Notes: generated from the letters alone by a model not told the origin. Numbered from the stretch's first letter, positions 818 to 64,000 are shown. The stretch: DNA of 64,000 bases from Candidatus Palauibacter sp. (GCF_965261555.1 NZ_OZ253465.1:878667-942666); one strand, 5' to 3'. Made by a program: numbers and translations.

Positions 818-1070
818 CAACCCTGTTTCCCCAGCCTCTCTTGGGCCCGCCGAGCGCACAGCGCGTAACTTGGTGGGCTAGGGCCGCAGCCCACCGCGCC
901 AAGTCGGGAGCGTTAGACGCGAGCGGAGGTTGTGCGGCCTCTCGTGTCTCAACATGCTTGCCCGTGACGCTTACCCGTGCCCACGAAAGCTCATCCTGTA
1001 TAACCAATGGTCTCGTACAAGCCGCCATGGTCTCAGCAACGGTCCATCATCCAGTCCAGGGCGTGAGGCG

Positions 1071-3257
1071 GTGAGTCGTTTGCGGGGTTTTCCCTTGGCC
1101 GAGCTCGTGACCCTCGGACTGGTCGTGGCCCTTGTTCCGGGGTGTGGCAGTGAGGAGTCAGCGGGTCCAGTGCCCCCTCCCCCGCCGGAGCCCGCGCGAC
1201 CGGCCTCCGTCTCGGTCACTCCGGCCACGGTCGTGCTGACGGCCTGGCGAGACACGGTTCGGTTCTTGGCGGAGGTGCGCGACCAGCGCGGGCGCCCGCT
1301 AGAAGACGTGGCGGTGGCGTGGACGAGCGGCGACTCGGCGGTGGCGGTCGTGGATGGCTCCGGACTGGTGACGGCCGCAGGCAACGGAACCGCATTGGTG
1401 ATAGCGACCTCGGGGACGGTGTCGGCAACAGCGTCGTTGACCGTGATGCAGGAGGTGAGCCGAGTGACGGTCACGCCTGCGACCGACACGCTGGTCGCCG
1501 GCGACACGCGGCGCCTGTCCGCAGAGGCGTTCGACGCAAACGGACACACGGTGGCGAACACGGCTTTCGCCTGGAGCACAAGCGACGCGGCCGTTGCCAC
1601 CGTTGATTCCACCGGGTTGCTGCGCGGGGTGGCCGCGGGCACGGCCGTGATCGCGGCAGCCGCAGGGAGCGCGGAGGGGATGTCCGAGATCGTCGTGACC
1701 GTCGCGGGAGAGAACACCGACCGGGCGGCTCTGGTCGCCCTCTACGAAGCGACAGACGGACCGAACTGGACTAACAGCGGGAACTGGCTAACCGACGCGC
1801 CGCTGGGCGAGTGGTACGGCGTCTGGACCGACGCTTCCGGGCGGGTGATCCGCTTGGATCTCCGCGGCAGCTGGGACATCCTGTCTGTTACGGGAAATAA
1901 CCTCCGAGGTGCGCTCCCGGCTGAACTAGGGAGTCTCACTGCCCTTGAGATTCTGAACCTTACGCACAATGAACTGATCGGCCCGATCCCCCCGGAGCTG
2001 GGCAACCTGACCAGCCTCGACAGCCTGCAATTGTGGCAGAGCTCACTGATCGGCGAAATCCCGCCGGAACTGGGGAGTCTCAATGGCCTCCGGCTTCTGT
2101 CGCTGGGCTTCAACGAGTTGATTGGCAGAATTCCCCCCGAGCTTGGGAGTCTCACCAACCTCGAGATTCTGCACCTTTCCGGGAACGGGCTGACGGGGGA
2201 GATCCCACCGGAGCTGGGGAGCCTCGCCAACCTTCGGAAGTTGAACTTGCAAGGTAACGAATTGGCGGGGCCAATCCCGCGGGAGCTAGGGAATCTCGCC
2301 AACCTCGAAGAGATGTGGTTGAACTTCAACAGCTTGACGGGGGCAATCCCACCACAGTTGGGGAACTTGGCAAATCTCAAGATACTGATCCCGCAATTCA
2401 ACAAGCTGACGGGGCCGATCCCCCCGGAGCTGGGCAACCTCACCCGCCTCGAGCGGATGAACCTGCTCGCGAACGAGCTGGACGGATCAATCCCACCGGA
2501 GTTGGGGAACCTGCCTCGCCTCCGGCAGCTGAACTTGCAATCGAACGAGTTGACGGGGCCGGTCCCCCCAGAGCTGGGGAACCTCGCGAACATTGAGGCG
2601 CTGTCCCTGTCTGGCAACAAGCTGGTGGGGAGTATCCCGCCAGAGTTGGCAGACCTCAAGCGTCTCAAGCGGCTTCTCCTGGATAGCAACGAATTGACGG
2701 GCCGTATCCCCCCGGAGCTGGCAGGCATCGCGGCACTGGAGGGTCTGGCTGTGAGTTGGAACGCGCTCACGGGGAATATCCCGCCGGAGCTGGGGAACCT
2801 CGCTGCCCTCGAGTACCTGCATGTGTCCGAGACCGCTATTGCGGGCAAGGTGCCCCCGGAGTTGGGGAACCTTTCCAATCTGGATGCCTTGTACTTGTTC
2901 GGGAACGCACTGACCGGGGAGGTTCCGACCTCGTTCCTAGAGTTGACCCGGCTCCGGTCGTTTTATTGGCACGAAAATGACGGCGACCCTGCCTTGTGCG
3001 TGCCCGTCTCGCAGCCGTTCGACAGTCTGCTCGTAGGGCTGGAAGCTTGGGACGGACCGCGGTGTGCGTCGTCACGAAAGGACGCTCGCCCACCGTTGGG
3101 GGCGCGGCCTACGTGGCCGGGCGAAACGTCCGTGCTCCCTCGCGGCTTCCCCCACGGCGGCTGGCGTACAGGAGAGTGGCCGCCGCCTCCGCCCGCTCAT
3201 CCTTTCTCCGTTCCGTTCCGCCTCCCGCCTATGCCGGGAGGCGGCGACGCTCGATGA
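1071..3257 (+). CDS. Lipoprotein with two Big_2 (bacterial Ig-like) domains followed by ~18 plant-type leucine-rich repeats
   Basis: GTG start at 1071 in frame with the track ORF 930..3257. Lipobox LVPGCGS. Big_2-like segments (VSVTPATVVL...TALVIATSGTVSATASLTV). Then regular 24-residue repeats LxxLxxLxLxxNxLtGxIPPELGNL. Confidence 0.7.
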   Translation: MSRLRGFPLAELVTLGLVVALVPGCGSEESAGPVPPPPPEPARPASVSVTPATVVLTAWRDTVRFLAEVRDQRGRPLEDVAVAWTSGDSAVAVVDGSGLVTAAGNGTALVIATSGTVSATASLTVMQEVSRVTVTPATDTLVAGDTRRLSAEAFDANGHTVANTAFAWSTSDAAVATVDSTGLLRGVAAGTAVIAAAAGSAEGMSEIVVTVAGENTDRAALVALYEATDGPNWTNSGNWLTDAPLGEWYGVWTDASGRVIRLDLRGSWDILSVTGNNLRGALPAELGSLTALEILNLTHNELIGPIPPELGNLTSLDSLQLWQSSLIGEIPPELGSLNGLRLLSLGFNELIGRIPPELGSLTNLEILHLSGNGLTGEIPPELGSLANLRKLNLQGNELAGPIPRELGNLANLEEMWLNFNSLTGAIPPQLGNLANLKILIPQFNKLTGPIPPELGNLTRLERMNLLANELDGSIPPELGNLPRLRQLNLQSNELTGPVPPELGNLANIEALSLSGNKLVGSIPPELADLKRLKRLLLDSNELTGRIPPELAGIAALEGLAVSWNALTGNIPPELGNLAALEYLHVSETAIAGKVPPELGNLSNLDALYLFGNALTGEVPTSFLELTRLRSFYWHENDGDPALCVPVSQPFDSLLVGLEAWDGPRCASSRKDARPPLGARPTWPGETSVLPRGFPHGGWRTGEWPPPPPAHPFSVPFRLPPMPGGGDAR

Positions 3258-9526: not shown

Positions 9527-11203
9527 TCAGGGTCGCCGCAACGGACGGCCGGCGAGTTCGCCGGTCACCTCGTCGTCGCGGATCGCGAAGCGGCCGTTCA
9601 CGAGCAGGTGAACGACACCCTCGGACAACTGGTGCGGATCGTCGTAGGTCGCGCGGTCCGTGAACCGGTCGAGATCGATGACCGCGATGTCGGCGACCAT
9701 CCCCTCGCGGATATAACCGCGATCGTCGAGGCGGAGGAAGTCCGCGGCGAGGCCCGACATGCCCCGGATCGCGAACGGCAGCCCGATCGCGCCATCCCGG
9801 TCCACGAAGTCCTTGATCTTCTTCGGGAAGGTCCCGTACACGCGGGGGTGCACGATCTCGGCCCCCGGGGCGGGCGTCGCACCGTCGGTGCACGTCATCA
9901 TCCACGGCATCGTGGCGAGGTAGCGCGTGTTCTCAACGTCGTAGAGATCGCGGTTCATCACCCACGGGTTCGACTCGGACATGATCTCGCGCACGGCCTC
10001 GGGGACGGGCAGCCCGCGCTCGGCCGCCACATCGGCCAGCGTCTTGCCGTTGAACTCGGGCCTCGCGTCGGCGAACACGATCTTCTCCGGGCCGCCGCGG
10101 ATGTCGAGCATCTCCATCGTCTGCACGTCGAGGATCCGGGCCGTATCCGGGTTCGCGAAGCGGCGCACCATCTGCTCCGGGCCGCCGGCCTGCGCCCAGC
10201 GCGGGATCGTGTAGGCCCGCAGGCTCGACATCGTGGACGTGTAGACGTGCTGTGCGCCCGCCACCTCGATGCCCTCGGCGCGCGCCGAGTCGATGATCGC
10301 CGCGCCCTCCGAGGCCCGGCCGTAGAGCGCGGCCCCCTGCGCGTTGAAATGGCTGAAAATCGTGCGGAGCCCCGACTCCGCGCCGATGTGGATCGCCTCG
10401 CGGATCGAGTTGTGGTAGCCGATGCCCTGATAGGCCGCCCCGAGATCGCGGTCGTGGGTATCGTAGACCGGGGCGTGCTCCCCGCCGATGGGGTACTCCG
10501 CCGCCACCCGGCCGAGTTCGATGACCTCGTCGGCCTCCGCGTAGTAGCCCGGCGTATAGAAGAGTCCGGTGGAGAGCCCGAAGGCGCCGTCCTCCATCCC
10601 CTTCCGGACGAGCACCTTCATCTCATCGAGTTCCGCCGCGGTCGGGGCGCGGTTGTCCATGCCCATGACCGTCCCCCGCACGGAGCCGTGTCCGATATAG
10701 GAGACGATGTTCTTCCCGACGCCGGATTCCTCGAGGTCCGCGTAGAGCGCGGCGAGGTCCGTGCTGCTCGAGCCGTCGACCCCGATCACGCCCGTCGTGA
10801 TGCCCTGCGTGAGGAATTCGACCGCGGGGAGCCCGTACGCCTCGCCGACGGTGATAACGCTGATGTGGCTGTGCATGTCGATGAAGCCGGGCGTGAGCAG
10901 GAGGCCGTCGAGCGCGATCGTGTCCCGCGTGGCGAGCGCCGCCTCGCTCGCCGCAGCGTCACCGACGAACGTGATCCGGTCGCCCTCCACCGCCACGTCG
11001 GCCGCGAACGACGCCTCCCCCGACCCGTCGATCACCGTCGCCCCGGTGAACAGAACGCTCGTCGGGACGATCTCCGCTTCCGCCTCAGGGGCGTCGCCCG
11101 GCGCGCAGGCCACCGTCACACCCGCCAGCACGAGACACGCGGCGGGGATCCGCCATCGCAGCGGGATGGCGTCCGACATACTCTCAACGCGCTCGACGTT
11201 CAT
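9527..11203 (-). CDS. Amidohydrolase-family protein, D-aminoacylase (N-acyl-D-amino-acid deacylase)-like, lipoprotein
   Basis: Start MNVERVES at 11203. The upstream 198 codons of the track ORF are Arg/Ser-rich antisense to rph. Lipobox AGVTVACAP. Metal-binding FIDMHSH. Has the D-aminoacylase-like central and C-terminal regions. Confidence 0.65.
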
Positions 11204-33072: not shown

Positions 33073-33156
33073 GAGGCGCGGTTGCGATGACGTCTTGCTC
33101 CGACGCGTGATCGGACCCGAGCTTGCAACATACGATCCCCGAAGGCGAGGTCTGAC

Positions 33157-34317
33157 ATGATGAGCCAGCGAAACCCGATTCCACGACGACAGGTGCTGAT
33201 CCAGGGCGGCGCGGCGGCCGCCGGTCTCGCGGTCCTGCCGACGGACATCTTCCGCGGCTGGCTCGCCGGGTTCGATCAGGAGGCCGTGATCCCGTGGGTT
33301 CAACGGCCCCACCCCGGGTTGACGGAGCGGATGAATATCCTGAACTGGGAAGAGCTGGACTCCTGGATCACGCCGGTCAGTCAGATGTTCCGCGTGGGGC
33401 ACTACGGGTTGCCGGTGATCGCGGAGAGCGACTGGAATCTCGAGATCGGCGGACTCGTGGACCGGCCGCGGACGTTCAGCCTCGCCGAGCTGAGAGCGCG
33501 GCCCCGCCAGGAGGTCGTGTTCACGCTGGAGTGCTCCGGGAACCGCGGCCGTCCCTCGTTCATCGGCGGCGTCCACAACGCGCGCTGGGCGGGGACCCGG
33601 CTCGCCGATGTCCTTGCGGAGGCCGGCGTTCAGGAGGACGGAATCGAGGTCGTCTTCTTCGGGGCGGACGAAGGCGAGGAGGAGATCCGGGGCAACACGG
33701 TGACGCAGAACTTCGCCCGCAGCCTGTCGCTCGAGGACGCGATGAATCCCGACATCATCCTCGCGTACGAGGTGAACGGCGAGCCGCTGCCGACTGCGCA
33801 CGGATTTCCGCTGCGGGTCATCGCGCCCGGCTGGTACGGCATCGCGAACGTGAAATGGCTGACGCGGATCGAACTCCGCGACCGCCGCTTCATGGGCAAG
33901 TTCATGGCCCGCGACTACGTGACGCTGCGAGCGGAGGAGCGCGACGGCGAGACGGTGTGGACGGAGACCTCGGTGGGGCGCGTGAACATCAACTCCGTCC
34001 CCGCGAAGGTCACGCGGAACGGCGACGGCTACGCGATCCACGGGGCGGCGTGGGGCGCGGACATCGCCTCGGTCGAGGTCCGCGTGGACGAAGGGCCGTG
34101 GCAGGCGGCGACGCTGGGCGAAGGCCAGGGCGACCCGTACACGTGGACGTTCTGGCGCATGGACTGGGACGCCACGCCGGGTCGGCACGCGATCGTCTCG
34201 AGGGCGATCGACGCGGACGGCAACATCCAGCCGGCGGCGGACGACCCGATGCTCGTGAACAAGCGGACGTACTGGGAGAGCAACGGACAGCTCACCCGCA
34301 ACGTCGTGATCGACTGA
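33157..34317 (+). CDS. Sulfite-oxidase-family molybdopterin oxidoreductase (Tat-exported)
   Basis: Twin-arginine signal RRQVLIQGGAAAAGLA. Moco-binding core TLECSGNRGRP...ARWAG. C-terminal dimerisation/Ig-like domain. Confidence 0.7.
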   Translation: MMSQRNPIPRRQVLIQGGAAAAGLAVLPTDIFRGWLAGFDQEAVIPWVQRPHPGLTERMNILNWEELDSWITPVSQMFRVGHYGLPVIAESDWNLEIGGLVDRPRTFSLAELRARPRQEVVFTLECSGNRGRPSFIGGVHNARWAGTRLADVLAEAGVQEDGIEVVFFGADEGEEEIRGNTVTQNFARSLSLEDAMNPDIILAYEVNGEPLPTAHGFPLRVIAPGWYGIANVKWLTRIELRDRRFMGKFMARDYVTLRAEERDGETVWTETSVGRVNINSVPAKVTRNGDGYAIHGAAWGADIASVEVRVDEGPWQAATLGEGQGDPYTWTFWRMDWDATPGRHAIVSRAIDADGNIQPAADDPMLVNKRTYWESNGQLTRNVVID

Positions 34318-34774: not shown

Positions 34775-35983
34775 TCATTCCACCTGCACGGGGTGCGGGA
34801 GCGGGACGTTCAGCAGGTAGCCCTTTTCGTTCATCAGAGGCTCATCCGGCTGCGTATTTCCCGCCGCATCCGTGGCGCGGGTGGCCAGCGTGTGCGTCCC
34901 CGGCGTCGCGTCCCACTCGAACTCGAAGCGTTGCCACGCGAGGGGCAGAATCGGATCGACGATCTCGGCCTCCAGCCACGTCGTTCCGCCGTCCGGACTC
35001 CATTCGACGGCGGATACCGGTCCCGCCGGCGCGTGCGCGAACCCGTGGAGGACGTGGGACCCCGGCGCCAGCTGCGCGGGCCTCGGAAGGGCCAGCGCAC
35101 TCTTCACGACGAGTTCCGTGATCACCGCCCCCTGAGCGGGCGCATGCTCCTCCGCCGGCCACTCGTCGCCGATGAGGACGTAGGACGACGTGTTGTTCGA
35201 GTTCCACACCCGCTCGGTGGAGAGCTGTATGGACCCCAGCCACTTGATGCTGCTGGACCCCGACCATCCGGGAACGACGGACCGCGCCGGGAATCCGTGA
35301 TCCGCGGGAAGCCGCTCGCCGTTCATGCGCAGCGCGATGATGGTGTCGGGATCCCGCGCCTTGGCGAGCGGCATGGCGCGCTCGAATCCGGTGCTGTCCA
35401 GCCCCACGAGATTCACATCGACCGTTCCCGGCCGCACGCCGGCCAGGTCGAGCACCGTGGCGACCGACGGCCCCGACCACTCCGCGCACCCCACGGCTCC
35501 GGTCGTCCATTGGCCGCCGCTCGCCCGGGTGCCCGTGAGTTCCGGATACAGACCCCGCCAGTTTCCGGCGCACTCCAGATAGGCGGTGATCGTATGCTGC
35601 GGCAGCGACTCGAGGGTGGACAGGTCGAGCCGCAGCTCGGTCTCCGCGCCGTCCCCCTCCACTCGAAGCGAGTAGCCCTCGGGGTCGATCGTCGGCGTGG
35701 GCGAGTGGTTTCGGACGAAGAACAACTCGTTCGGCGTGATGAATCCGTCGACGAGTTCGAGCCGCGTTTCCAGATTCAGGGTGCGCTGGATGAAGGGCGC
35801 TGGATCCTTCGCCCACCGGGGCGGCCGCTCCCCGCGGGAGGCGATGGCGGCTTCGGCGTCCGTCGATGACCCCGCGTCTCCCGCGCGGCCGCAGGCGGCG
35901 AGCCAGGCCGCGGCGGGTCCCGCGCTGGCGGCGCGCACAAAATCTCGACGGGTGAAGAGGGCGGTCTCGACTCTCCGCTTCAT
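34775..35983 (-). CDS. Sulfite-oxidase-family molybdoenzyme (second paralog, Tat-exported)
   Basis: Start [22 protein letters not shown] (Tat motif) at 35983. Moco domain [10 protein letters not shown]...GCAEWSG. C-terminal Ig-like domain. Confidence 0.65.
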
Positions 35984-36043
35984 CGGCGACACCTCGCGGT
36001 TCCGGCGCTTGGCATATCGGTGCGATTGGGCAAGTTTAGATGT

Positions 36044-37705
36044 ATGCGACTCAAGAGCAACGCACCCGCGATGCCTTGGCGTCCGCGGATCGTCGATGGC
36101 GGCCAGCGGAAGCACCGCTCGATCCCGGCGTTACTGTCCGCTGCGCTCGCGGTCGGGCCGGTCGCGTGCACGTCCGAACCCGGCGTCGAGGCCGACGCGG
36201 TCTTCGAGGTCGTGGAGGCGACGATCGGCGACGTGCAGGCGGCGATCCGCGATGGGACGACGACCTGCCGCGAGGTCGTGGAGCGGCATCTCGCCCGGAT
36301 CGCGGCCCATGAAGACGCGATCAAGGCGATCACCGTGCTCAACCCCCGGGCTCTCGACCGCGCGGATCGGCTCGACGCGGCGCAGGCCGCCGGCGAGACG
36401 ATGGGACCGCTCTTCTGCGTCCCGATGCTCGTCAAGGACAACTTCGACACGCACGACATGGTCACGACCGGGGGGTCCATCGCTCTCGCGGACAACCTTC
36501 CGCCCGACGACGCCTTCATGGTGCGGAAGATCCGCGAGGCGGACGCGATCGTGATTGCCAAGACGAACATGGCGGAATGGGCCTTCAGTCCGCGTCAGTC
36601 CGTCAGTTCCTCCTTCGATACGACGCGCAACGCCTACGCCCTCGACCGCGTCCCCGCCGGATCCAGCGGGGGGACGGCCTCGGGGGTCGCCGCCTCGTTC
36701 GGCGTCATCGGGCTGGGCAGCGACACCGGCAACTCGATCCGCGGCCCCAGCTCCCACCTCGCCCTGGTCGGGATCCGTTCGACCATCGGCCTCACGAGCC
36801 GCGACGGGGTCATCCCCCTCTCCTTCGACCGCGATATCGCGGGCCCGATGGGCCGGACCGTGGAGGATGTCGCGCGCGTGTTCAACGTCGTGGCCGGCTA
36901 CGATCCCGCGGATCCGTACACGGAAGCGGGGCGCGGCCGCGAGGAAGAGGACTACACGGCCTTCCTGGACGCCGACGGGGCGCGGGGCGCGAGGATCGGC
37001 GTCCTGCGCGCGCTCGCGGACCCGGAGGAGACCGATGGGGAGATTCTCGCGCTTTTCGAGGCGGCCATCGACGACCTCGCGGCGCTCGGAGCCGGGATCG
37101 TGGACCCCTTCGAGTTCGACGTCGCAGCGGAACTGGGGCGGGAGGGGATGTTCTGCCGCCGCTTCCGCTACGACATGTGGGTCTATCTGCGGTCGCTGGG
37201 GCCGGCGGCGCCGATGACCGACGTCCTGGAGGTGCTGGAGGACGGACGATACTCCGACTACGCGCAGGCTTCGCTGCGGCGGAACGAGGGGGCCCCGCTC
37301 GACGTACATCCGTCCGAATGGGACGAACCGTGCCCGGACTACGCGGAGAACGAGGGCCGTCAGGCCTACCTGGCGAGCCTCGTGGAAGCGATGGATGACG
37401 AACGCGTGGACGCGATCCTCTACCCGTCGTGGCTCTGCGTGCCCGCCCCTATCGACAGGGGGGACGAGGAATACTGCGGCGACAACAGCCAGCGCGTGGC
37501 TCCCGCCACCGGGATGCCCGCGATCACGGTCCCGATGGGGTACACTTACGGCGAGTTCCCGGCGGGACTGCAGATTCTTGCCCGGCCGTACGACGAAGGG
37601 CTTCTCTTCCGGCTCGCGTACGGATACGAACAGGCGACACGACACCGCCGTCCCCCGGACGGGTTCCAGCGGGACGGTTTCCAGGAGAAGGAGGGAGCAT
37701 CATGA
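36044..37705 (+). CDS. Amidase (amidase-signature family)
   Basis: GGSSGGTASGVAASFGVIGLGSDTGNSIRGPSS amidase signature with Ser-cisSer-Lys elements. Stop overlaps the TBDR start (ATGA). Confidence 0.8.
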   Translation: MRLKSNAPAMPWRPRIVDGGQRKHRSIPALLSAALAVGPVACTSEPGVEADAVFEVVEATIGDVQAAIRDGTTTCREVVERHLARIAAHEDAIKAITVLNPRALDRADRLDAAQAAGETMGPLFCVPMLVKDNFDTHDMVTTGGSIALADNLPPDDAFMVRKIREADAIVIAKTNMAEWAFSPRQSVSSSFDTTRNAYALDRVPAGSSGGTASGVAASFGVIGLGSDTGNSIRGPSSHLALVGIRSTIGLTSRDGVIPLSFDRDIAGPMGRTVEDVARVFNVVAGYDPADPYTEAGRGREEEDYTAFLDADGARGARIGVLRALADPEETDGEILALFEAAIDDLAALGAGIVDPFEFDVAAELGREGMFCRRFRYDMWVYLRSLGPAAPMTDVLEVLEDGRYSDYAQASLRRNEGAPLDVHPSEWDEPCPDYAENEGRQAYLASLVEAMDDERVDAILYPSWLCVPAPIDRGDEEYCGDNSQRVAPATGMPAITVPMGYTYGEFPAGLQILARPYDEGLLFRLAYGYEQATRHRRPPDGFQRDGFQEKEGAS

Positions 37706-55320: not shown

Positions 55321-55396
55321 CGTCCCTCCGGTCGTCTCGGATCGGTGCCCTAAACCCTGGTTGACTCGCCGGCATCACGGTAGCCAAGTTCGCCAC

Positions 55397-56434
55397 ATGA
55401 CGACCAGAAGCAATCGAACGTCGACGTACAGCGCTGCGCTGCCGCCGTTTCCCGAAGGCTGGTATTTCATCGGAAAGCGCGCGTCCATCGAGCGCGCGAA
55501 GCTCATCGAGAAGACGTGGATGGGCGAGGAGATCGTCGCCTGGGCCGACGACGAGGGCCGCATCTGCGTGGCGGACGCCTTCTGTCCGCACCTGGGCTCG
55601 CACATGGGACCCGCCGCGGGCGGCCTCGTGCGCGACGGCTGTCTCGTGTGCCCCTTTCACGGGTTCGAATTCGATACCGCCGGCCAGTGCGTGGCCACGC
55701 CCAATGCCCCGCCCCCGAAAGCGGCGAGGTTGAAGCTCTACGAGACGCGGGAGATCCTCGGCATGATCTTCGCCTGGTGGGGGAGCGGCGGGAGACCGCC
55801 GCAGTGGCACCTGCCCGATGAGCCACCCACGGGCGGTGAGTGGTCCGGATTGCGATCCACGACCATGCGCTTCCGCGGCCACCCCCAGGAGACCGCCGAA
55901 AACTCCGTTGATGTGGAGCACCTGGGCTACACGCACGGCTACGACGATGTGGTGCCGACCGACTTTTCGGTCGATGGAGCCTACCTGAAGAGTTGCTTCG
56001 ACTTCAAGAGCGTTCGCCGGATCGCGGGTCTGGCGGATATCCGCTCCGAGGTCTCGGCCGTCACACACGTCCATGGACTCGGCTATTCCTTCGTTGAAAT
56101 CCACGAGACGGCGGTCGGCATAAGGTCGCGCATGTGGGTGCTTTCGACACCGGTCGACGGCGAGTCGGTGGATCTGACGCTGGTCAGCCAGGTGCATGAG
56201 GTCCGCAAACCCCGACGGCGCATCGCGGGTCTGGCCTTCCTGCCCGTGGCGCTGCGCCACAGGCTGCTGAATCTCTTCGTCATACGGGAGGAGAGACGGT
56301 TCGTCCTGCAGGACGTGGTCATTTGGGAAAGGAAGCGCTACCGGTCCCCGCCCAGGCTGTGCCGAGCCGACGGCCCCATCGGAAAGTACCGCAGATACTG
56401 CCGGCAGTTCTACCCGGACCAGGGGGGACGCTAG
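55397..56434 (+). CDS. Rieske [2Fe-2S] non-haem-iron oxygenase (KshA/SdmA/Neverland-type alpha subunit)
   Basis: Rieske ligands CPHLGSHM...CPFHGF. Mononuclear iron motif ENSVDVEHLGYTHG (D-x2-H-x4-H). About 345 aa. Convergent with the P450 gene and overlapping its stop by 4 nt. Confidence 0.75.
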   Translation: MTTRSNRTSTYSAALPPFPEGWYFIGKRASIERAKLIEKTWMGEEIVAWADDEGRICVADAFCPHLGSHMGPAAGGLVRDGCLVCPFHGFEFDTAGQCVATPNAPPPKAARLKLYETREILGMIFAWWGSGGRPPQWHLPDEPPTGGEWSGLRSTTMRFRGHPQETAENSVDVEHLGYTHGYDDVVPTDFSVDGAYLKSCFDFKSVRRIAGLADIRSEVSAVTHVHGLGYSFVEIHETAVGIRSRMWVLSTPVDGESVDLTLVSQVHEVRKPRRRIAGLAFLPVALRHRLLNLFVIREERRFVLQDVVIWERKRYRSPPRLCRADGPIGKYRRYCRQFYPDQGGR

Positions 56435-58476
56435 ACCGGTATCTCGCGGTGTTGCTCGGCGATGTGGAACATGAGCTTCTTGCTCGGCTTCATCGACGGA
56501 AGCGGGTCGAACTTGAACTTGTAGCCCGCCGGCACCTCGAGCCTGAAGTAGTGCGCGATCATCAGCACGTTGACCGCCAGTTGCAGTTCCATCCACCGGA
56601 AACCGAGACAGGTATGCGTGCCCAGCCCATACGGCGCGTACCCCGGACTCTTATGCTCGTCGCGTGGCGGCAGGTAGCGGTCGATGTCGAACGAGAACGG
56701 GTCCGGGAATACATCTTTCATGTAATGGGAGGCCGTAGAGGCGATGAAAATGTTGCTCCCCACCGGCAGTTCGTAGCCCTCGACCACACACGAGTTCATC
56801 ACGGTCCGCATGGACCCCGGGACGACCGGATACATGCGGAGGAATTCCATCAGGAATCGGTGGGTCACATCGATCGACGACCCCGTGATGGCGTCGCCAT
56901 CCGGGTCGCCATCCCCGAACAGCGCATCGGCTTCGCTCCGGATTCGCTCGTAGAGTTCCGGCTGCGTCGCCATGGCGTACACCGCAAAGCTGAGCGCGTC
57001 GCCGAGGTACACGCTGGCGACCAGCGCCGCCGAGAGCGCGAAACGCAGATTCGATTGCGGCACGAACTGCGGGTCGCTCCCGTGCAGGCTGAGCCAGTCG
57101 TCCGCCAGGTCCCGCGGGCATCCGGCTCGCTGTTCGGTGGTATGCACGCTCTGGATCCGCTTCAGCAACGTGTCGACGGTGGCTGCGCGGCGTTTCATGC
57201 CCGGCGTCTTCAGCATGAAGCCGGGCATGGCCTTCATGATCTTGACGGTGAGCGCGCGCTCCTTGTACACCGACAGATCGTCGAAGATGTCCTGTGAATC
57301 GACGCCGACGGACAGAGGCGAAATCTGCGCGTTGGCCATTCGGCGGCAGAGCGACCTCGCCTGGTAGGTGTCGCCGACCTTCCAGTCCGCCATGAAGTTG
57401 CGGGCATACTCGTAGAGAACGTCCGCCTGGTCCGCGAGTCTCCCGCGGGAATACGCCGGCGAGATGGCCTTGCGAAGCCGGAAATGGTCGGCGCCATCCA
57501 GCGACGGCAACACGCCGTTCGCGCCGTAGACTTTCTCGAAGTCGGCGAAATAGTCCTTGGTTCTCACGTAGATCCGGCTGTGCCGGTGTGCCCAGCGATT
57601 CGTCTCCGGGCCGACGAGGAAGAGCATGGGTTCCTTGAACGGCGGGCGGAGCTCGAACACCGGCCCGTACTCCTTCGCAAGTTCCGCGATGATCGCGGGA
57701 AGGTTGCCGGAGCGCAGATGCGGGTTGAGCAGCACGTGACGCAGCTTGACCTTCGGAATGTGCTTGGTGAGGGCCGAACGGCGAAGCAGGGGGCCGGCGA
57801 GGTTGTGTACGACGGCGGCGGCGATGGACCGGCCGATCAGATCCATCCGGCAGATGAACTCGATGCGTTCCTCCGCCTCCTCATCGAGTTGGAAGATGTA
57901 GCGAAAGACATCGCACGTATTGACGAGGCAGATGATGATGACGTCTCTCGGATCCGGAATCTCGTCGGAGAAGATGACCCTCCCGATTCGCGTCCTGGTG
58001 AACTGACGAGCGGTGCCTTCCTCGGCGGCGCCATCCGGTTCGGACTCCCAGGCGCCGCGAGCCAGCGTCCAGAAGTCGCCATCGTGGTGTTCCAGGATGT
58101 TCAATCCGACCAGGCGCTCCAGCGTCCGGTCGATGATGGACTCCGCCCGCGGGGCGAGCCGTTCGATCCAGTACCGGGCGGTCCGTCGATGGGGTGCTTC
58201 CGCGATTTCCTTTAGAAAGGGGTCCAGGACGGGGTCGCCCGTTTCGGTGGGGTCCACGAGGAAAAGGGATTCCATGTCCGTGTCGATGCGCGACAAAAGG
58301 GAGAGTTCCGCGAGCACGGCGCCGGCGACGGCGCAGTTCAACTCCCAGCCGGGGACCTGGTGGAAGTAGCCGCTCTCCTCGTTGAGGAGCATCAGGATCA
58401 ACTCCTCGGGCAGGCTCAGCGCTTGATTGGAAACACTCCCTGTAGGGACGACCATAGGGCTCGACCGCCCGTCCAT
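56431..58476 (-). CDS. Cytochrome P450 fused to an N-terminal GPP34/GOLPH3-like domain
   Basis: C-terminal ~470 aa carry the ExxR K-helix (EFLRMYP), PERF-like PDPFSFDIDRY and haem-thiolate loop YGLGTHTCLG. The I-helix (VYLGDALSF) lacks the usual acid-Thr pair. N-terminal ~200 aa match the GPP34 family (LSLPEELILMLLNEESGYFHQVPGWELNCAVAGAVLAELSLLSRI...). ATG at 58476. An alternative GTG lies at 58503. Confidence 0.75.
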   Translation of the reverse strand: MDGRSSPMVVPTGSVSNQALSLPEELILMLLNEESGYFHQVPGWELNCAVAGAVLAELSLLSRIDTDMESLFLVDPTETGDPVLDPFLKEIAEAPHRRTARYWIERLAPRAESIIDRTLERLVGLNILEHHDGDFWTLARGAWESEPDGAAEEGTARQFTRTRIGRVIFSDEIPDPRDVIIICLVNTCDVFRYIFQLDEEAEERIEFICRMDLIGRSIAAAVVHNLAGPLLRRSALTKHIPKVKLRHVLLNPHLRSGNLPAIIAELAKEYGPVFELRPPFKEPMLFLVGPETNRWAHRHSRIYVRTKDYFADFEKVYGANGVLPSLDGADHFRLRKAISPAYSRGRLADQADVLYEYARNFMADWKVGDTYQARSLCRRMANAQISPLSVGVDSQDIFDDLSVYKERALTVKIMKAMPGFMLKTPGMKRRAATVDTLLKRIQSVHTTEQRAGCPRDLADDWLSLHGSDPQFVPQSNLRFALSAALVASVYLGDALSFAVYAMATQPELYERIRSEADALFGDGDPDGDAITGSSIDVTHRFLMEFLRMYPVVPGSMRTVMNSCVVEGYELPVGSNIFIASTASHYMKDVFPDPFSFDIDRYLPPRDEHKSPGYAPYGLGTHTCLGFRWMELQLAVNVLMIAHYFRLEVPAGYKFKFDPLPSMKPSKKLMFHIAEQHREIPV

Positions 58477-58530
58477 GTAATTTTGAGAAGCACCGGACGG
58501 CACGGCTTGTTCCGGTTGCCGTCGCCATTG

Positions 58531-59061
58531 TCAAGGATGGCGTGACTCGAACATCCAGGTCAAGCCAACGTGCAGGGCCGTTGCATCCGCTTCGGACTCC
58601 GAGGCCCCGCCGGCGCGGAGGGCAGCGGCACGTCCCGCATCCGCACCCTCGATCCAGGAGTGCGAGTAGTCGAAACCGAAGTTCACGCCGCCTCGATACC
58701 AATTCTGCCTGAGTCCGACATCGACCTCGCCGAAGCCGGGTAGCGGCCGCGCGACTTCGTCGTCGGCCGTACCGAAATGACCCCACAGCGCCACGAACGT
58801 GGGTTGCAGGCTGTCACTCAAGTTCTTGGATGCCGCCAGTGCGAGAGTGGTGCCATCTCCCGCATCCCCACCCTCGAACCACGCATACGTATAGCCACCG
58901 AAGGAGCCTGCAAAAAACGACCCGGCGCCCGTGGCGTCGGTTGCGCGCGGTTCACGGAACACCCTGGAAGACTCTGATCCGTCGTGCGGAAGCGGATGCC
59001 GGCACCGGGGGCGAGGACGGTGCTCGCCAACTCGGCCCCCAGGCCAGCGAGTAAAGCGCAC
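58531..59061 (-). pseudogene. Probable remnant of an outer-membrane beta-barrel protein (C-terminal ~120 aa only, no signal peptide)
   Basis: ...GYTYAWFEGGDAGDGTTLALAASKNLSDSLQPTFVALWGHFG...VDVGLRQNWYRGGVNFGFDYSHSWIEG...ATALHVGLTWMFE has alternating amphipathic strands and a terminal W.F as in OMP barrels. The N-terminal part is Arg-rich and lacks a signal sequence. Confidence 0.3.
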
Positions 59062-59260
59062 TCGGTCGATGACCGATGCTGCTTCAGGTGACGGTCGAGC
59101 CGCTCTGCGAGCTTGGCGGCTGGCGGAACGCCAAGACGGTGCTCAACTGCTACCAGAGGCCCGACGAGGGACAGCGGGGGGCATCCGATTGGTGGAGGCG
59201 GTCTCGGCCCGGACGGCAACGGCGACTGGCAGGCCGTGGCGGGGCTTTTGCCACGGGCTG

Positions 59261-60295
59261 CTAGGGTTTGCGAGCCAGGAAACAGTACAGCGGCGTAAAG
59301 ATACCCGTCTTGCCGCCCGCAACGTACGCCTCCGCGGTTCGATCGAGGAGCCGTGCGACTGCCGCCGAGCCATTCGGAAAGAACCGCAGTACCTCGGCCA
59401 GCTTCGATCCCGCGATGATCACCTTGCGGCCCCACGCAAGCCCGCACAAGGCGCTCCCCAACGTCCCGTGGCGACTCTCCATGGGTTGATACCAGGGCGT
59501 GGAGGGTCCTTCCCGAACCTCCCAGTCGCTCCCCTCGATGACCTGGAATCCCGCCCCTTCGAGCGCGTGATTCACTTCCCCGAAGGTGGCGATGTCGTGC
59601 AGCGCAATACCGCGCATGAGGTCCCGCTTGATGGTCCGGTGCCGTGCGTTCCGCGGATCGAACCGGTCCGTCAGACACATTTCCTGACCCCAGAACAGGG
59701 CACCCGGTTTCAGCACGCGGAAAATCTCGGCGAAGGCGCGTTGCTTGTCCTGCGCATGGCACGTTGACTCTATGGCGTAACCCGCGTCGAAGGTGTCGGC
59801 CTCGATGGCGCTCATGTCCGCGAAGCTGCACTTCCTGAAGTCGGTCATGTCCTCCAGCCCCGCCTCGGCGTTCAACTTCTTCGCCTCCGCCAGCTGGATC
59901 TCATTGATGTTGATTCCCGTGACCCTGACACCCGCCTCACGGACGACGCGGCGCATGGGGCCGCCGACTCCACAACCGACGTCGACCACCTTCATGCCCT
60001 GTTGAAGCTCCAACCGGGAGATCATCGCCCGCTGGTGCCGGACCTTGGACTCCTCCGGACTTTCGTCAGGCGTGAGGGGCGCGAAGTGCAGGGATTCACC
60101 CCAGCTCCACACCATGATGCCGTTGCAAAGCTCGTAGTAGTCCCTGACCGTTTCCTCGTGGTCGTAGCCGCCCTCGCCTCCGGCCCGCCCGACCCATCCA
60201 TCGAAGTGTCGCACGCGATGCGCCACGTCCGATCCCCGGTACGCTTCCGTCAGCGCTTTCGACAGTTCGCCCAGCCGCTTCGCGTGGCGCTTCAA
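59261..60295 (-). CDS. Sterol C-24 methyltransferase (Erg6/SMT1-type SAM-dependent methyltransferase with Sterol_MT_C domain)
   Basis: End-to-end similarity to Erg6. YYELCNGIMVWSWGESLHFAP (Erg6 [20 protein letters not shown]). SAM motif VVDVGCGVGGP. AGYAIESTCHA (AIEATCHAP). FRVLKPGALF (YKVLKPGGTF). TPWYQPM (IPWYYPL). C-terminal VAGGKTGIFTPLYCFLARKP (VAGGKSKLFTPMMLFVARKP). A TTG start at 60295 abuts the RND stop. An alternative TTG at 60355 would overlap it. Confidence 0.85.
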   Translation of the reverse strand: MKRHAKRLGELSKALTEAYRGSDVAHRVRHFDGWVGRAGGEGGYDHEETVRDYYELCNGIMVWSWGESLHFAPLTPDESPEESKVRHQRAMISRLELQQGMKVVDVGCGVGGPMRRVVREAGVRVTGININEIQLAEAKKLNAEAGLEDMTDFRKCSFADMSAIEADTFDAGYAIESTCHAQDKQRAFAEIFRVLKPGALFWGQEMCLTDRFDPRNARHRTIKRDLMRGIALHDIATFGEVNHALEGAGFQVIEGSDWEVREGPSTPWYQPMESRHGTLGSALCGLAWGRKVIIAGSKLAEVLRFFPNGSAAVARLLDRTAEAYVAGGKTGIFTPLYCFLARKP

Positions 60296-63200
60296 GCGGG
60301 CAACTCGCGTCGCTGCTCCGAGCGGCCGCGCGACCTTGCCCGCCGCGCCAGCCAACGCTGGTGGATCGAGGTCAGCGCCGGCACGAGGAACATCAGCAGG
60401 ACCGTGGTGAAGAGGATGCCGCAGCCGATCGAAGCGGAGAAGGGCACGAAGAACTGGGCCTGAATCGCGTCTTCGAGGATGAGGGGCGTGAAGCCGAGGA
60501 AGGTGGTCAGCGACGTCAGCATGATCGGGCGGAAACGCCCCTTGGCACCCTCGATGATCGCTTCTCGTGCCGGCAGGCCTTCCTCGAACTCCTGGTCGAT
60601 GAAGTCGATCATGACCAGGGAGTCGTTCACCACCACGCCGGCGAGGCCGAAGACCCCGATGAAGGACTCGGAGCTGAGTGCGACACCCAGGACCCAGTGG
60701 CCCAGAATCACCCCGATCAACCCGAACGGGATGATAGCCATAATGATGATCGGCTTGGTATACGAGCGCAGCGGAATCGCGAGCAGCGCGAAGATCATGA
60801 TCATGGCGATCCCGAAGCCGGGGCCCAGCGCATTCAGGGATTCCAGCTGCTGCTGCGGTTCACCTCCGAAGGTGTAGGTCAGTTCCGGGTCCTCGGCGAC
60901 GATCCCCGCGAGGATGTCGTCTTCCAGAATGCGGTTGGCGCGCCCGCCGGATATCACCTCCGGATCCACATCCGCAGTGACCCTGACGATGCGCTGGCCG
61001 TCCTGGCGATGGATGGCGGGCGGCGACATGCCCGAGCTCAGCGAAGCCACACGGCTCACCGGGACCTCGGCGCCGCCGGCCGTCCGAACCAGCGAACTTT
61101 CGATGTCGGTGATCGAGTTGCGCTGCTCCTCGGGCAGCCGCACGTACACCCGAACCTCTTCGCGGCCGCGCTGCACCCTTAGCGCCTCCGCGCCGAAGAA
61201 CGCGGCTCGCGTCTGCCAGGCGAGGTCGTCGAGGGTGAGACCGAGAGTTCGTGCCTCGGGTAGCAGGCCCAGCTGGATTTCCGGGATGCCGGGGGTGTGG
61301 TCGGAGCGTATGTCGTGGACGCCGCCCACTTCGCGGAGGCGATTGACGACCGTGGTTGCGACCCCGGGGAGCTGCCCCGGGTCCGGATGGGACAGTACGG
61401 CCTCCACGGGGTTGCCCAGGTCGTAGATCTGGCCGCTGATGGTGACCGCGCGCACATAGGGCAGGACACCCAGTTCCTCGCGCCACGCCTGCACGACTTC
61501 CGCGGTTGGAATCCGCCGGTGCTGCGCGTCCAGGAGCTTGAACGAGATGCTGGCGACATTGGGCTCCGGGTTCAACCTGAGGTTGGGACTGAGCCCCCCT
61601 CCATCGACCCGCGGCCGTTGACCGACCGTAATCGTTACCCCGGACAGCAGGGGCGGTGCATCGGCGGGCCTGTCTGCGGAGATCCGCTCGATGACCCGGT
61701 GGCCGGCCGCCTCCAACTCGCGCGCCACCTCGTAGGTTCGCTGGGCCGTCGTCCCGTCCGGCATCTCCAGGGTGGCCGTTGCGAAATCGCCTTCGACCTC
61801 CGTGGCAAAGGTGAACGGAACGATGCCCGCCGGCAGCAAGGCAAGGCACAGGACGAGCAGGGCGATTGCGGACGCGAGCGTCACTCCGGGTCGATCGGTC
61901 GCGAAACTCACGCCGCGGTGCAGGGGGCCCTGCACGAATCTGCCCAACTGCAGATCGACCTGAGCCTGAATCCGGGATACGAATCGCCCAAGGCGCGTTC
62001 GGGGCGCCCACTCCGGTCCGTGGAGGTGGTGAGAGAGGTGGTTGGGCAACACCAGCAGCGATTCGATCACCGAAATCACCAGCATCGCGATGACGATGGT
62101 CGGCAGCGCCTTCCAGATTTCTCCGATCCCTCCTGGAATGAAGAGCAGAGGAGAGAACGCGGCGATGGTGGTCAGCACTGCGAAGATGAGAGGCACTTTG
62201 ATTCGCCGGGCCCCGCGTATCGCCGCGACGACGCCCGGCGTGCCCCGCATTCGTTCCAGGTGGATGTACTCGGAGACGACGACCGCATCGTCCACCACGA
62301 TTCCGATGGCGAGCACGAACGAGAAGAGGGAGACCGCGTGGATGGCGAGGTCGAACGCCATCATCGCGGCCAGGGCACCGACGCCGGACACCCCGAGGCC
62401 GACGGCTACCCAGAAGGCAAGCCGGAGTTCGAGAAACAGTCCCAAGGCCAACAGCACCAGCAACAGCCCGAGAAGACCATTCTTCATGAGGATGCCGGCG
62501 CGCTCCTCGAAGGCATCGGATGCGTCGTTCAAGATGGTGACGCCCACGCCGTCCGGGAGTGACGGGGCCACCTCGTCGGCGACGTACTGCCGAACGGCGC
62601 CCGCCACATTCATCACCTTCTCGCCCTCGGCCCTCGATACCTCGACGAAGACGGCCGGCAGACCGTCGTGCCGGACGATCAGGTCCAGGTCCTGGAAGCC
62701 GTCGCGCACCTCGGCGATGTCGCCCAGTCGTACCACCGTGCCGTCCCCGCGGCTGAGCAGTACGATCTCCTCGAAGTCCTGCTGATCGTAGCTCTGTCCC
62801 AGGGTGCGCACCCTCACCTGGGACTGCTCGGTGTCGATGCTGCCGGCGGACAGATCCAGCGAACTGCGGCGAATTGTGTTTGCGATATCGGGGAGCGTGA
62901 GTCCAAGCGCTCTGAGCCGCTGCAGCGGCACTTCGATCGAGATCTCATAGTTGCGGATGCCGCTCGTCTCTACCTGCGAGACGGAAGGCAGCGCGGCGAG
63001 TTCATCCTCGATCCGGTAGGCAAGCTCCTTCAACGTTCGCTCGGGGGCATCGCCGTAGACGGCCAGGCGCATGATGCTCTCGGCGTTGGTCAGCTCCCTG
63101 ATCTGGGGCCGCTCGGCTTCTCCCGGGAACGTCTGGATTCGGCCGACCGCCGCTTCCACCTCGGCCACGGCATCGTTCATCTCCGTGCCCGACCGCATTT

Positions 63201-63513
63201 CCACCCTGACCGACGCCATGCCCGGGGCCGCCACGGACTTCACCGCCTTCACGTTGCCCAGCCCTTCGACCTCGTCCTCGATCTTGGCGACGATGGACTC
63301 CTCGACCTCCTCGGGGGTGGCGCCCGGATAGGCGACGGAGACCTCGACCTGGTTGAAGGGCACGGTGGGCCAGGCTTCCAGCTCGAGCCCGAAGAACGAG
63401 GCCACGCCCGCGACGAGAATGCCGACCATCAGCAGATTGGCGGCCACGCTGTTGCTCGCCATGTAGGCGATGGGGCCGCCGGGTTCGCCGTGATTCCTTC
63501 CGTTCGAAGTCAT
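60292..63513 (-). CDS. RND efflux transporter permease (AcrB/HAE1-type, 12 TM, two large periplasmic loops)
   Basis: 1073 aa. Canonical AcrB-like organisation and motifs (...SIVAKIEDEVEGL..., ...AIGIVVDDAVVVSE..., ...GLAGVVVNDSLVMIDF...). Confidence 0.85.
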   Translation of the reverse strand: MTSNGRNHGEPGGPIAYMASNSVAANLLMVGILVAGVASFFGLELEAWPTVPFNQVEVSVAYPGATPEEVEESIVAKIEDEVEGLGNVKAVKSVAAPGMASVRVEMRSGTEMNDAVAEVEAAVGRIQTFPGEAERPQIRELTNAESIMRLAVYGDAPERTLKELAYRIEDELAALPSVSQVETSGIRNYEISIEVPLQRLRALGLTLPDIANTIRRSSLDLSAGSIDTEQSQVRVRTLGQSYDQQDFEEIVLLSRGDGTVVRLGDIAEVRDGFQDLDLIVRHDGLPAVFVEVSRAEGEKVMNVAGAVRQYVADEVAPSLPDGVGVTILNDASDAFEERAGILMKNGLLGLLLVLLALGLFLELRLAFWVAVGLGVSGVGALAAMMAFDLAIHAVSLFSFVLAIGIVVDDAVVVSEYIHLERMRGTPGVVAAIRGARRIKVPLIFAVLTTIAAFSPLLFIPGGIGEIWKALPTIVIAMLVISVIESLLVLPNHLSHHLHGPEWAPRTRLGRFVSRIQAQVDLQLGRFVQGPLHRGVSFATDRPGVTLASAIALLVLCLALLPAGIVPFTFATEVEGDFATATLEMPDGTTAQRTYEVARELEAAGHRVIERISADRPADAPPLLSGVTITVGQRPRVDGGGLSPNLRLNPEPNVASISFKLLDAQHRRIPTAEVVQAWREELGVLPYVRAVTISGQIYDLGNPVEAVLSHPDPGQLPGVATTVVNRLREVGGVHDIRSDHTPGIPEIQLGLLPEARTLGLTLDDLAWQTRAAFFGAEALRVQRGREEVRVYVRLPEEQRNSITDIESSLVRTAGGAEVPVSRVASLSSGMSPPAIHRQDGQRIVRVTADVDPEVISGGRANRILEDDILAGIVAEDPELTYTFGGEPQQQLESLNALGPGFGIAMIMIFALLAIPLRSYTKPIIIMAIIPFGLIGVILGHWVLGVALSSESFIGVFGLAGVVVNDSLVMIDFIDQEFEEGLPAREAIIEGAKGRFRPIMLTSLTTFLGFTPLILEDAIQAQFFVPFSASIGCGILFTTVLLMFLVPALTSIHQRWLARRARSRGRSEQRRELPA

Positions 63514-63650
63514 TGTGCCGGTTCAGCCTCGGTCGGAACGGGGATCGTCGTTATCAGGAGGCTACAGGTAAGAAGGGGTGGCAGGCGAGGCTTCCCGAAT
63601 CGGGCCGGACCGTCCACGGCGGCCGTCCGGCCCGGAACCCGCGTCGGAGC

Positions 63651-64000
63651 TCACCGCGCCGGATCGGTTCCGGTCTGAACGCGCATGCCTTCGGCGGCGA
63701 ATTGAATGCCACCGGTGATCACGGCCTGGCCGTTCTCGAGGGAACCGGTCACAAATACCTCGTCGTCAGCGCGCTGCAGCACGCGGACCGGAATGATGCT
63801 CACGACACCCGCTTCGCTCACCGCCCAGACTTCGTTGCCCGTTTGTAGCGCCGCGCGTGGTACGCGAAAATAATCCTCCGGTGAAACACCGTCGATTTCC
63901 ACTTCCACGAACTTGCCGACCAGCAGGGGAGGGCTGCCGGACGCGCTGGATGCGCTCGCGGAGACGCCCGCCGCAAAGGGGTCGGACACGCGCACGATCA
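63651..64000 (-). CDS. RND periplasmic adaptor (membrane fusion protein), C-terminal part; gene continues beyond the window
   Basis: C-terminal beta-barrel/MP domain of HlyD-family adaptors (...GKFVEVEIDG...VPRAALQTGNEVWAVSEAGVVSIIPVRVLQRADDEVFVTGSL.NGQAVITGG...). Start lies past position 64000. Confidence 0.6.
   Translation of the reverse strand, partial: IVRVSDPFAAGVSASASSASGSPPLLVGKFVEVEIDGVSPEDYFRVPRAALQTGNEVWAVSEAGVVSIIPVRVLQRADDEVFVTGSLENGQAVITGGIQFAAEGMRVQTGTDPAR

Follow-up and report, generated by a model that had tools for sequence, protein, structure and literature searches.

Sterol methyltransferases (SMTs) such as yeast Erg6 and the plant SMT1 and SMT2 enzymes are class I S-adenosylmethionine (SAM) methyltransferases that carry an additional C-terminal domain, Sterol_MT_C. 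Bacterial relatives have been described in number: 7,966 SMT homologs were detected in IMG metagenomes, 20 metagenomic bacterial enzymes methylated sterols when assayed in vitro (Brown et al. 2023, PMC10070321), and SMT1/ERG6 genes are enriched in metagenome-assembled genomes (MAGs) of sponge symbionts, Gemmatimonadota included (Kelly et al. 2022, PMC9531527). A later study lists 25 residues conserved in every functional SMT and places residues 81 and 249, in the Erg6 numbering used below for conserved SMT residues, within 5 Å of the docked sterol side chain (Brown & Welander 2025, bioRxiv 10.64898/2025.12.19.695621). Here we describe an SMT-family gene (59261..60295, minus strand) in a 64,000-nucleotide stretch of Candidatus Palauibacter sp. 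(Gemmatimonadota; NZ_OZ253465.1:878667-942666, part of a 3,803,763-bp contig), referred to below as the window and numbered from its first letter. The gene belongs to a paralog clade of sponge and coral symbionts, to which we give the provisional name SMT2. A first-pass annotation had called it an Erg6-type sterol C-24 methyltransferase and had taken bacterial SMTs to number only a handful, an estimate contradicted by the surveys above and by our own searches, in which over 2,200 homologs came up, with no fewer than 546 loci in species-representative genomes. Taken simply as an SMT homolog in a bacterium, the gene is unremarkable and has an annotation in public databases; what sets it apart is its clade and its neighborhood.

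The longest open reading frame (ORF), counted from the first TTG, spans 59261..60355 on the minus strand and encodes 364 residues. The 344-residue form, which also begins at a TTG, is 100% identical to WP_428277228.1 (P0001), named ‘methyltransferase domain-containing protein’ by NCBI and ‘sterol methyltransferase family protein’ in UniRef. With codon-position GC contents of 0.65/0.48/0.81, coding-like for a window of 68% GC, the 344–364 residue product of the first-pass annotation is upheld. BLASTP against Saccharomyces cerevisiae Erg6 returned 34% identity over 328 residues (E 1e-60); the alignment extends from SMT2 residue 24 to the last residue and is colinear, without large gaps, in agreement with the full-length correspondence that had been claimed. 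The Erg6 reference sequence used here agrees with 28 of 28 numbered residues quoted by Brown & Welander 2025. Pfam detected both Methyltransf_11 (7.4e-18) and, at residues 308–364 of the 364-residue ORF, Sterol_MT_C (PF08498; 4.6e-15, 55.9 bits against a gathering score of 21.7), the domain whose absence the first-pass annotation had named as grounds for giving up its assignment. The C-terminal string that it had quoted, VAGGKTGIFTPLYCFLARKP, is present verbatim.

In common with Erg6 and the plant enzymes, the window SMT2 possesses the Region II DxGxGxxGP SAM motif (VDVGCGVGGP, at residue 104 of the window protein), H90, E195 and the C-terminal GG...FTP...ARKP block, with G333, L341, G352, F357 and P359 all retained. 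A generic class I methyltransferase was considered and rejected: profiles for CMAS (1.3e-15) and UbiE (2e-07) matched only the shared Rossmann core, and Sterol_MT_C is present. No NCBIfam model matched the protein at or above its cut-off, and a PDB sequence search turned up no solved SMT structure. On the strength of these sequence comparisons, the window gene is a real bacterial member of the SMT family, with a match far beyond chance.

The window SMT2 differs from Erg6 and the plant SMTs in its bacterial origin, in sharing an operon with a resistance-nodulation-division (RND) pump, in residue 249 and in Region I. The substrate region to which the first-pass annotation pointed is present but diverged: it reads MVWSWGESLHF, with WSWGESLHF at residue 63 of the window protein, and the canonical pattern Y/F81-E82-Y/F83-G84-W-G-x-x-F89-H-F is replaced by M81, V82, W83, S84 and L89. 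A clade signature, YDHEETV, stands at residue 44 of the same protein. We aligned 82 close relatives against Erg6 and found the same departures fixed, or nearly so, across the clade. Tyr81 is replaced by Met in 80 of the 82 sequences, Glu82 by Val in 79, Phe89 by Leu in 80, Thr78 by Ser or Asn in 76, and the Asp, Asn or Gly of position 249 by Ile in 80. The clade nevertheless keeps 23 of the 25 functional-SMT residues, including the SAM motif, H90, E195 and the C-terminal ones; the window SMT2 keeps 22, deviating by T78N, G84S and F89L. D125, G127, G129 and P133 are retained in 80–82 of the 82 relatives, while the SAM motif, H90, E195, D189 and Q154 are retained in 79–82, across at least 10 phyla. 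Given Met81, Val82, Leu89 and Ile249 in place of Tyr, Glu, Phe and Asp/Asn/Gly, the substrate or the regiochemistry should differ from that of the Erg6-type enzymes.

The clade is also separable as a group. In a search of 1.84 billion representative proteins, scores dropped from 344 bits (48% identity) at the edge of the SMT2 clade to 264 bits (42%) for the rest of the family. Neighbor-joining (NJ) trees with fragmentary sequences removed recovered the core clade and the extended clade in 200/200 bootstrap replicates each, apart from Erg6 and the Nitrospira SMT1; a first NJ tree that included the fragmentary P0242 and P0370 did not recover the clade (83/200). The window SMT2 is 43% identical to the active Nitrospira SMT1. 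The phylogeny that the first-pass annotation had suggested thus retains the gene within the SMT family and places it in a distinct paralog clade, with Region I and position 249 replaced, rather than with the Erg6 type. Two homologs of the window protein, P0080 (477 residues) and P0116 (373 residues), bear an N-terminal extension that corresponds to the C-terminal tail of a KshA-like Rieske protein, and PF19298 is listed for P0080. These extensions are probably gene-call run-ons, the Rieske gene lying directly upstream on the same strand as in the Nitrospirales contig described next, though a true Rieske-SMT2 fusion is possible.

Enzymatic data exist for the clade. The closest tested homolog, at 75% identity, is P0090, encoded at 10001-11035 of a 70-kb Nitrospirales contig (L001) from the coral Porites lutea that possesses two SMT genes; its species-representative copy is L049 (JAAXIB010000027.1, 70,077 bp). 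The two L001 SMTs are 38.81% and 35.63% identical to Erg6, values equal to two decimals to those given in Supplementary Data 1 of Brown et al. for the ‘Nitrospira sp., coral reef’ genes 2682229274 and 2682229270 (PMC10070321). Within the accessible part of the published alignment, a 25-residue stretch is identical to the L001 SMT2; the alignment shows a leading ‘L’ because the gene starts with TTG. The identity values and the shared stretch together identify P0090 as ‘Nitrospira 2 of 2’ (IMG 2682229270), which Supplementary Figure 1 lists under ‘No activity’ (bioRxiv 10.64898/2025.12.19.695621). The signature YDHxETV, directly preceding Region I, is also found in three more sequences of that ‘No activity’ group, namely Aplysina aerophoba 10000835 2 of 2, Petrosia ficiformis LXNJ01004423 and Theonella Chromatiales MAG 2 of 2. 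The assays supplied desmosterol and 24-methylenecholesterol to Escherichia coli lysates (bioRxiv 10.64898/2025.12.19.695621). As F89 and T78 occur in all functional SMTs and SMT2 has L89, no SMT2 is among the 23 active bacterial enzymes. In the same system, none of the four SMT2-type proteins was active as against 23 of 30 other bacterial SMTs (Fisher's exact P ~0.007), which goes against the Erg6-type C-24 function that the first-pass annotation had assigned.

The active bacterial SMTs (Nitrospira 1 of 2, IMG 2682229274; the propylating SMTs of Chlamydiae and of an Aplysina symbiont) resemble the window SMT2 in family and in their origin from uncultured host-associated bacteria, and in Nitrospirales both types share one locus. 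Unlike SMT2, they keep Y/F81, E82, F89 and T78 and methylate desmosterol; Gly249, required for propylation, is missing from the window protein. With Nitrospira 2 of 2, in contrast, the window SMT2 shares the YDHxETV signature, M81, V82, L89 and I249, as well as Rieske/KshA_C and GPP34-P450 neighbors. The Nitrospira protein differs in keeping Gly84, and its gene has a core sterol cluster and the gene for an outer-membrane beta-barrel protein beside it where the window has an RND pump.

The clade does not look like a set of decaying genes. Ratios of nonsynonymous to synonymous divergence (dN/dS) between the window SMT2 and 11 relatives are 0.17–0.41; with the catalytic and cofactor residues near-invariant over at least 10 phyla, SMT2 is unlikely to be dead. 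Synonymous divergence (dS) of SMT2 between phyla is only 0.24–0.8, and protein identity is 70–86% across Gemmatimonadota, Acidobacteriota, Latescibacterota, Nitrospirota, Chloroflexota, Rhodothermales, Binatia and Opitutales, a combination that implies recent horizontal spread. Within the window, the region that holds SMT2 and its partner genes (55394-64000) has a GC content of 0.649 relative to 0.684 in the rest, and in a related locus, L006, these genes adjoin transposase and integrase genes. The lower GC, the mobile-element neighbors and the low dS point to recent horizontal transfer. Judged from these substitution patterns, strong purifying selection acts on SMT2, which has moved between 10 or more phyla. 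The record titles of the 80 best SMT2 loci all denote MAGs, and we take their isolate tags and species names (Ca. Palauibacter irciniicola, rhopaloidicola and denitrificans; Plut_, RHO, COS, IRC, APA, SB06xx) to indicate sponge and coral hosts.

SMT2 is flanked in the window by genes for oxidation and for transport. Upstream lies an RND inner-membrane permease of the AcrB/MexB/MdtB (HAE1) type (60292..63513, minus strand; 1073 residues), matched by ACR_tran at 2.5e-159 over 1021 profile positions. Its TGA stop overlaps the SMT2 TTG start at 60295 as TTGA, an arrangement typical of translational coupling. The best solved relatives of the permease are the multidrug efflux pumps MexB, AcrB and those of the MdtB type, with HpnN absent from the 60 solved matches listed. 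Farther upstream, the C-terminal part of a periplasmic adaptor (membrane fusion protein; 63651..64000, minus strand) is cut by the window end; the fragment is 67% identical to residues 288–402 of the adaptor in locus L007, which bears PF25917 BSH_RND. A full-length AcrB-family permease with an upstream adaptor gene marks the pump as HAE1-type tripartite; the gene for its outer-membrane factor would be located past the window end.

Downstream of SMT2, a single ORF (56431..58503, minus strand; up to 690 residues) encodes a fusion of a GPP34 (GOLPH3) domain (PF05719, 9.5e-32, residues 31–231; ~57811..58413) and a cytochrome P450 (PF00067, 3e-37, residues 263–664; ~56512..57717). The P450 domain has an intact heme loop, YGLGTHTCLG, at residue 625 and ExxR motifs, and its solved relatives are only generically similar. 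Its identification as CYP51 was rejected, the domain being 24% identical to the Nitrospira CYP51. In the I-helix (residues ~500–507) the window protein reads YLGDALSF, and 33 of 75 comparable orthologs read YLGDTFSL; the window P450 and a sizeable minority of orthologs thus have Ala after the Asp where those 33 have Thr. Convergent with the fusion gene, and overlapping its end by 4 bp, is a gene for a KshA-like Rieske non-heme iron oxygenase (55394..56434, plus strand; 346 residues; Rieske 1.1e-15, KshA_C 6.5e-24) with the CxH...CxxH and DxxHxxxxH motifs. Its best solved relative is the 3-ketosteroid 9alpha-hydroxylase KshA (1.4e-23). SdmA was rejected as its identity, at 24% identity and 30.9 bits on the SdmA model, whose cut-off is 600. 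For the P450 fusion, the Rieske protein and an amine-oxidase neighbor found in related loci, NCBIfam offered nothing specific.

Conservation of this neighborhood was assessed by tblastn in 62 species-representative loci with full 10-kb flanks. The GPP34 domain is near SMT2 in 61 of these loci, the P450 domain in 60 and the Rieske oxygenase in 54; orthologs of the fusion are 68–72% identical. The RND permease, with orthologs 69–94% identical, adjoins SMT2 in 34 loci, accompanied less often by the adaptor (19) and an outer-membrane factor (11). A flavin amine-oxidase-family gene is near in 29 loci, a beta-barrel outer-membrane protein in 13, and core sterol genes (SMT1, SdmA, SdmB, ERG24, CYP51) in 5–6. 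Gene order within the module is shuffled between independent contexts. A distant clade member, 55% identical and from an organism of 47% GC, still has the GPP34-P450 fusion, convergent with SMT2, so that the association of the two genes is older than their recent spread. The module is horizontally mobile and is found in sponge and coral symbionts. Core sterol genes adjoin the module in Nitrospirales alone; there it abuts an SdmB-SdmA-ERG24-CYP51-(squalene epoxidase-oxidosqualene cyclase fusion)-SMT1 cluster, and this linkage is the strongest evidence for a sterol as the substrate class.

Several variants of these genes were encountered among the related loci. In Nitrospirales symbionts, squalene epoxidase and oxidosqualene cyclase form a single fusion protein of ~1,100–1,200 residues (L044 2160-5621, L060 4348-8016), which combines the SE and SQHop_cyclase_N/C domains and has a DCTAE motif; many homologs of 1,090–1,119 residues show the fusion to be widespread in related metagenomic bacteria. 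A second version of GPP34/P450, 43–47% identical to that of the window, accompanies SMT2 in some genomes, indicating that the partner has at least two lineages. It is found at L006 7553-9612 (the same as the L023 locus), where it is called as two ORFs (GPP34, 276 residues; P450, 410 residues), and at L025, L040, L045, L047, L052, L055, L057, L059, L066, L068, L070 and L080. The flavin amine-oxidase-family protein (PF01593; L001 6074-7432, L004 13138-14502) is absent from the window. NCBIfam models matched only its FAD-binding N-terminus (protoporphyrinogen oxidase, HpnE), far below cut-off, and it could be a side-chain desaturase.

Parts of the module have counterparts in the literature. The 690-residue window neighbor has the same GPP34 plus P450 architecture as GPP34_L, the long form reported to be exclusive to sponge symbionts and present in 92.6% of sponge-symbiotic Gemmatimonadota; GPP34 proteins have been proposed to be secreted effectors that bind phosphatidylinositol 4-phosphate (PI4P) and modulate phagocytosis, in a report where the words ‘sterol’ and ‘methyltransferase’ do not occur (PMC11706023). 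Here, by contrast, the fusion gene keeps company with genes for an SMT-family protein, a steroid-type oxygenase and an efflux pump, a context that points to lipid metabolism. RND-superfamily transporters are genetically linked to triterpenoid lipid genes in the case of BstA (Methylococcus) and HpnN as well, but BstA is HpnN-like whereas the window pump is an AcrB/MexB/MdtB-type tripartite permease with an adaptor. SdmA, like the window oxygenase, is a Rieske protein, one that acts on sterols in C-4 demethylation, and it is encoded in the same Nitrospirales loci; the window protein differs in carrying KshA_C instead of VanA_C, and no SdmB accompanies it in the window. We found no literature linking sponge symbionts, SMT, P450 and Rieske proteins in a search that was not exhaustive, and the published description of Palauibacterales does not mention sterols. 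The link between SMT2, GPP34-P450, Rieske oxygenase and RND pump appears to be unreported.

Taken together, a model for the module emerges to which we give about an even chance. SMT2 would be an active olefin C-methyltransferase with a remodelled pocket, working on a non-standard sterol within a module that oxidises, methylates and exports. The lipid would be supplied by the bacterium itself, as in Nitrospirales, or by a sterol-rich host. The GPP34-P450 fusion and the KshA-like Rieske oxygenase may oxidise or desaturate this sterol-like lipid, and SMT2 would add a methyl group to an olefinic carbon before or after that oxidation or desaturation. In most lineages, that of the window included, the tripartite AcrB-type RND pump, translationally coupled to SMT2, would then expel the product. 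Family and clade membership, the conserved catalytic residues, purifying selection, module synteny and coupling to the pump are shown by the sequences; that the substrate is a sterol, in what order the steps run and that the product leaves the cell is what we infer beyond them.

A number of points weigh against this model. We infer from residue conservation that SMT2 is active on another substrate, and the in-vitro failures, obtained in E. coli lysates, could reflect poor expression or a missing partner. The window SMT2 itself carries Ser at the otherwise conserved Gly84, a state shared by 6 of the 82 clade members. No oxidosqualene cyclase, squalene epoxidase, CYP51, ERG24 or SdmAB gene is present anywhere in the 64-kb window. 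Because sterol genes are also scarce within 10 kb of SMT2 in the 62 loci, the substrate could be something other than a sterol. The sterol modification implied by the first-pass annotation is plausible for a sterol-like substrate, given Nitrospirales relatives that adjoin a complete sterol cluster, but the window offers nothing for sterol synthesis in this genome, and its SMT2 gene is no proof that 24-alkyl sterols are made. The module is also without a redox partner for the P450 or the Rieske protein. Finally, an AcrB-type pump beside modifying enzymes fits detoxification as well.

That last point leads to an explanation that we regard as rather unlikely, in which the module serves three-phase detoxification of, or resistance to, lipophilic metabolites of the host or of neighbors, sponge terpenoids for example, that need not be sterols: the P450 and Rieske enzymes would functionalise the compound, the methyltransferase would cap or alter it, and the AcrB-type pump would expel it. 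SMT-family enzymes are known to act on non-sterol isoprenoids, as the triterpene methyltransferases of Botryococcus methylate squalene and botryococcene. The pump is of the multidrug HAE1 type and not of the HpnN/BstA lipid-transporter type, it adjoins SMT2 in more than half of the loci, with adaptor and outer-membrane factor in some, and most loci are without nearby sterol synthesis genes. The confinement of the module to host-associated bacteria rich in other symbiosis genes, and the frequent company of the flavin amine-oxidase-family gene, are likewise consistent with such a role. Olefin C-methylation, the chemistry of SMTs, is however an unusual conjugation for detoxification, the Rieske partner has a steroid hydroxylase as its nearest solved relative, the Nitrospirales linkage to the sterol pathway points to sterols, and 28 of the 62 loci have no pump within 10 kb.

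If sterols are the substrates, SMT2 might be an ordinary Erg6-like C-24 methyltransferase whose relatives appeared inactive through an expression artefact or because the assays supplied the wrong, late intermediates, the true delta-24 substrate being lanosterol, cycloartenol or zymosterol. The full-length Erg6 homology with Sterol_MT_C, the functional residues retained by the clade and by the window protein, and the adjoining sterol synthesis clusters in Nitrospirales accord with this explanation, and Brown & Welander note that inactive SMTs may need other sterol substrates (bioRxiv 10.64898/2025.12.19.695621). We nonetheless consider it unlikely. The imbalance in activity between SMT2-type and other bacterial SMTs tells against it, as do the fixed, clade-wide changes within the GWGxxFHF motif and at positions 81 and 249, both of which contact the side chain; in a Chlamydiae SMT, G249I abolished the second and third methylations. 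In Nitrospirales, moreover, SMT2 stands next to a canonical and active SMT1, which speaks for a role of SMT2 that SMT1 does not fill. A more specific proposal, which we hold to be improbable, is that SMT2 would methylate the sterol side chain with a regiochemistry other than C-24, for example at C-26 of the delta-25(27) (epi)codisterol made by SMT1, and together with the GPP34-P450 fusion and the Rieske oxygenase would yield a modified sterol specific to the symbiosis, exported to the host by the RND pump. We think it very improbable that SMT2 is a non-catalytic subunit serving the GPP34-P450 protein as a scaffold or by binding a sterol or lipid: the inactivity of all four tested clade members and the near-obligate pairing with GPP34-P450 would suit such a subunit, but a pseudoenzyme is expected to lose the conservation seen in its SAM motif, H90, E195, D189 and Q154 over at least 10 phyla, and the dN/dS values speak against it too.

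The remaining features of the window are described here for completeness. SMT2 and the P450 fusion are separated by a 757-bp spacer (58504..59260) without recognisable content, where relatives have 20–30 bp at the same junction. The spacer holds a weak 176-residue ORF (58531..59061, minus strand) with a GC content at third codon positions of 0.69, atypical for coding sequence here, and a C-terminus that resembles a beta-barrel strand pattern; it has no Pfam match, and blastx against all module proteins returned none. In blastn of the window and 80 loci, a 72-bp piece of the spacer recurred (83% identity) at unrelated sites in L023 and L075 and is perhaps a small repeat or a rearrangement scar. 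A promoter and terminator scan of the 55–64 kb region found no promoter-like site and one terminator-like site, below chance expectation. Elsewhere in the window are genes for peptidases, amidohydrolases, molybdoenzymes, a TonB-dependent receptor, a set of lysine/arginine-type biosynthesis enzymes and a leucine-rich-repeat protein. The last (930-3257, plus strand; 775 residues) has many leucine-rich repeats and bacterial Ig-like (Big_1/Big_2) domains; ‘eukaryotic-like’ proteins of this sort are enriched in sponge symbionts, and its presence is in keeping with a host-associated lifestyle. A Gp49-like gene (DUF891, HigB-type toxin family; 135-500, plus strand) overlaps an opposite-strand ORF, with which it is possibly a toxin-antitoxin pair. 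A DUF2784 gene is bracketed by two sulfite-oxidase-type molybdopterin oxidoreductases (33091-34317, plus strand; 34775-36130, minus strand), which have no connection with SMT2; close by are an amidase and a TonB-dependent receptor that carries a carboxypeptidase-regulatory domain.

Side-chain-alkylated steranes are read as fossil traces of eukaryotes and the earliest animals, and the current debate concerns whether bacteria, especially sponge symbionts, can make their precursors. SMT2, widespread in sponge and coral symbiont genomes, has failed every C-24 assay so far, and the inactivity of such paralogs in these assays means that ‘ERG6/SMT1’ counts in MAGs overstate bacterial capacity for 24-alkyl sterols. 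The value of the window gene is as a lead, being a member of an orphan, mobile and symbiont-specific module of SMT2, GPP34-P450, Rieske oxygenase and RND pump. By tying SMT2 to GPP34-P450, a hallmark of sponge symbiosis in a separate literature, the module provides a testable hypothesis for both orphan proteins, namely a shared pathway that would oxidise, methylate and export a sterol. It also furnishes candidates for the still-undiscovered methylases behind other sponge biomarkers. Should SMT2 prove to be a non-C-24 methyltransferase, bacterial symbionts would supply 26-methyl or other unusual ‘sponge’ sterols, and GPP34_L would be a sterol-metabolising enzyme rather than a phagosome effector.

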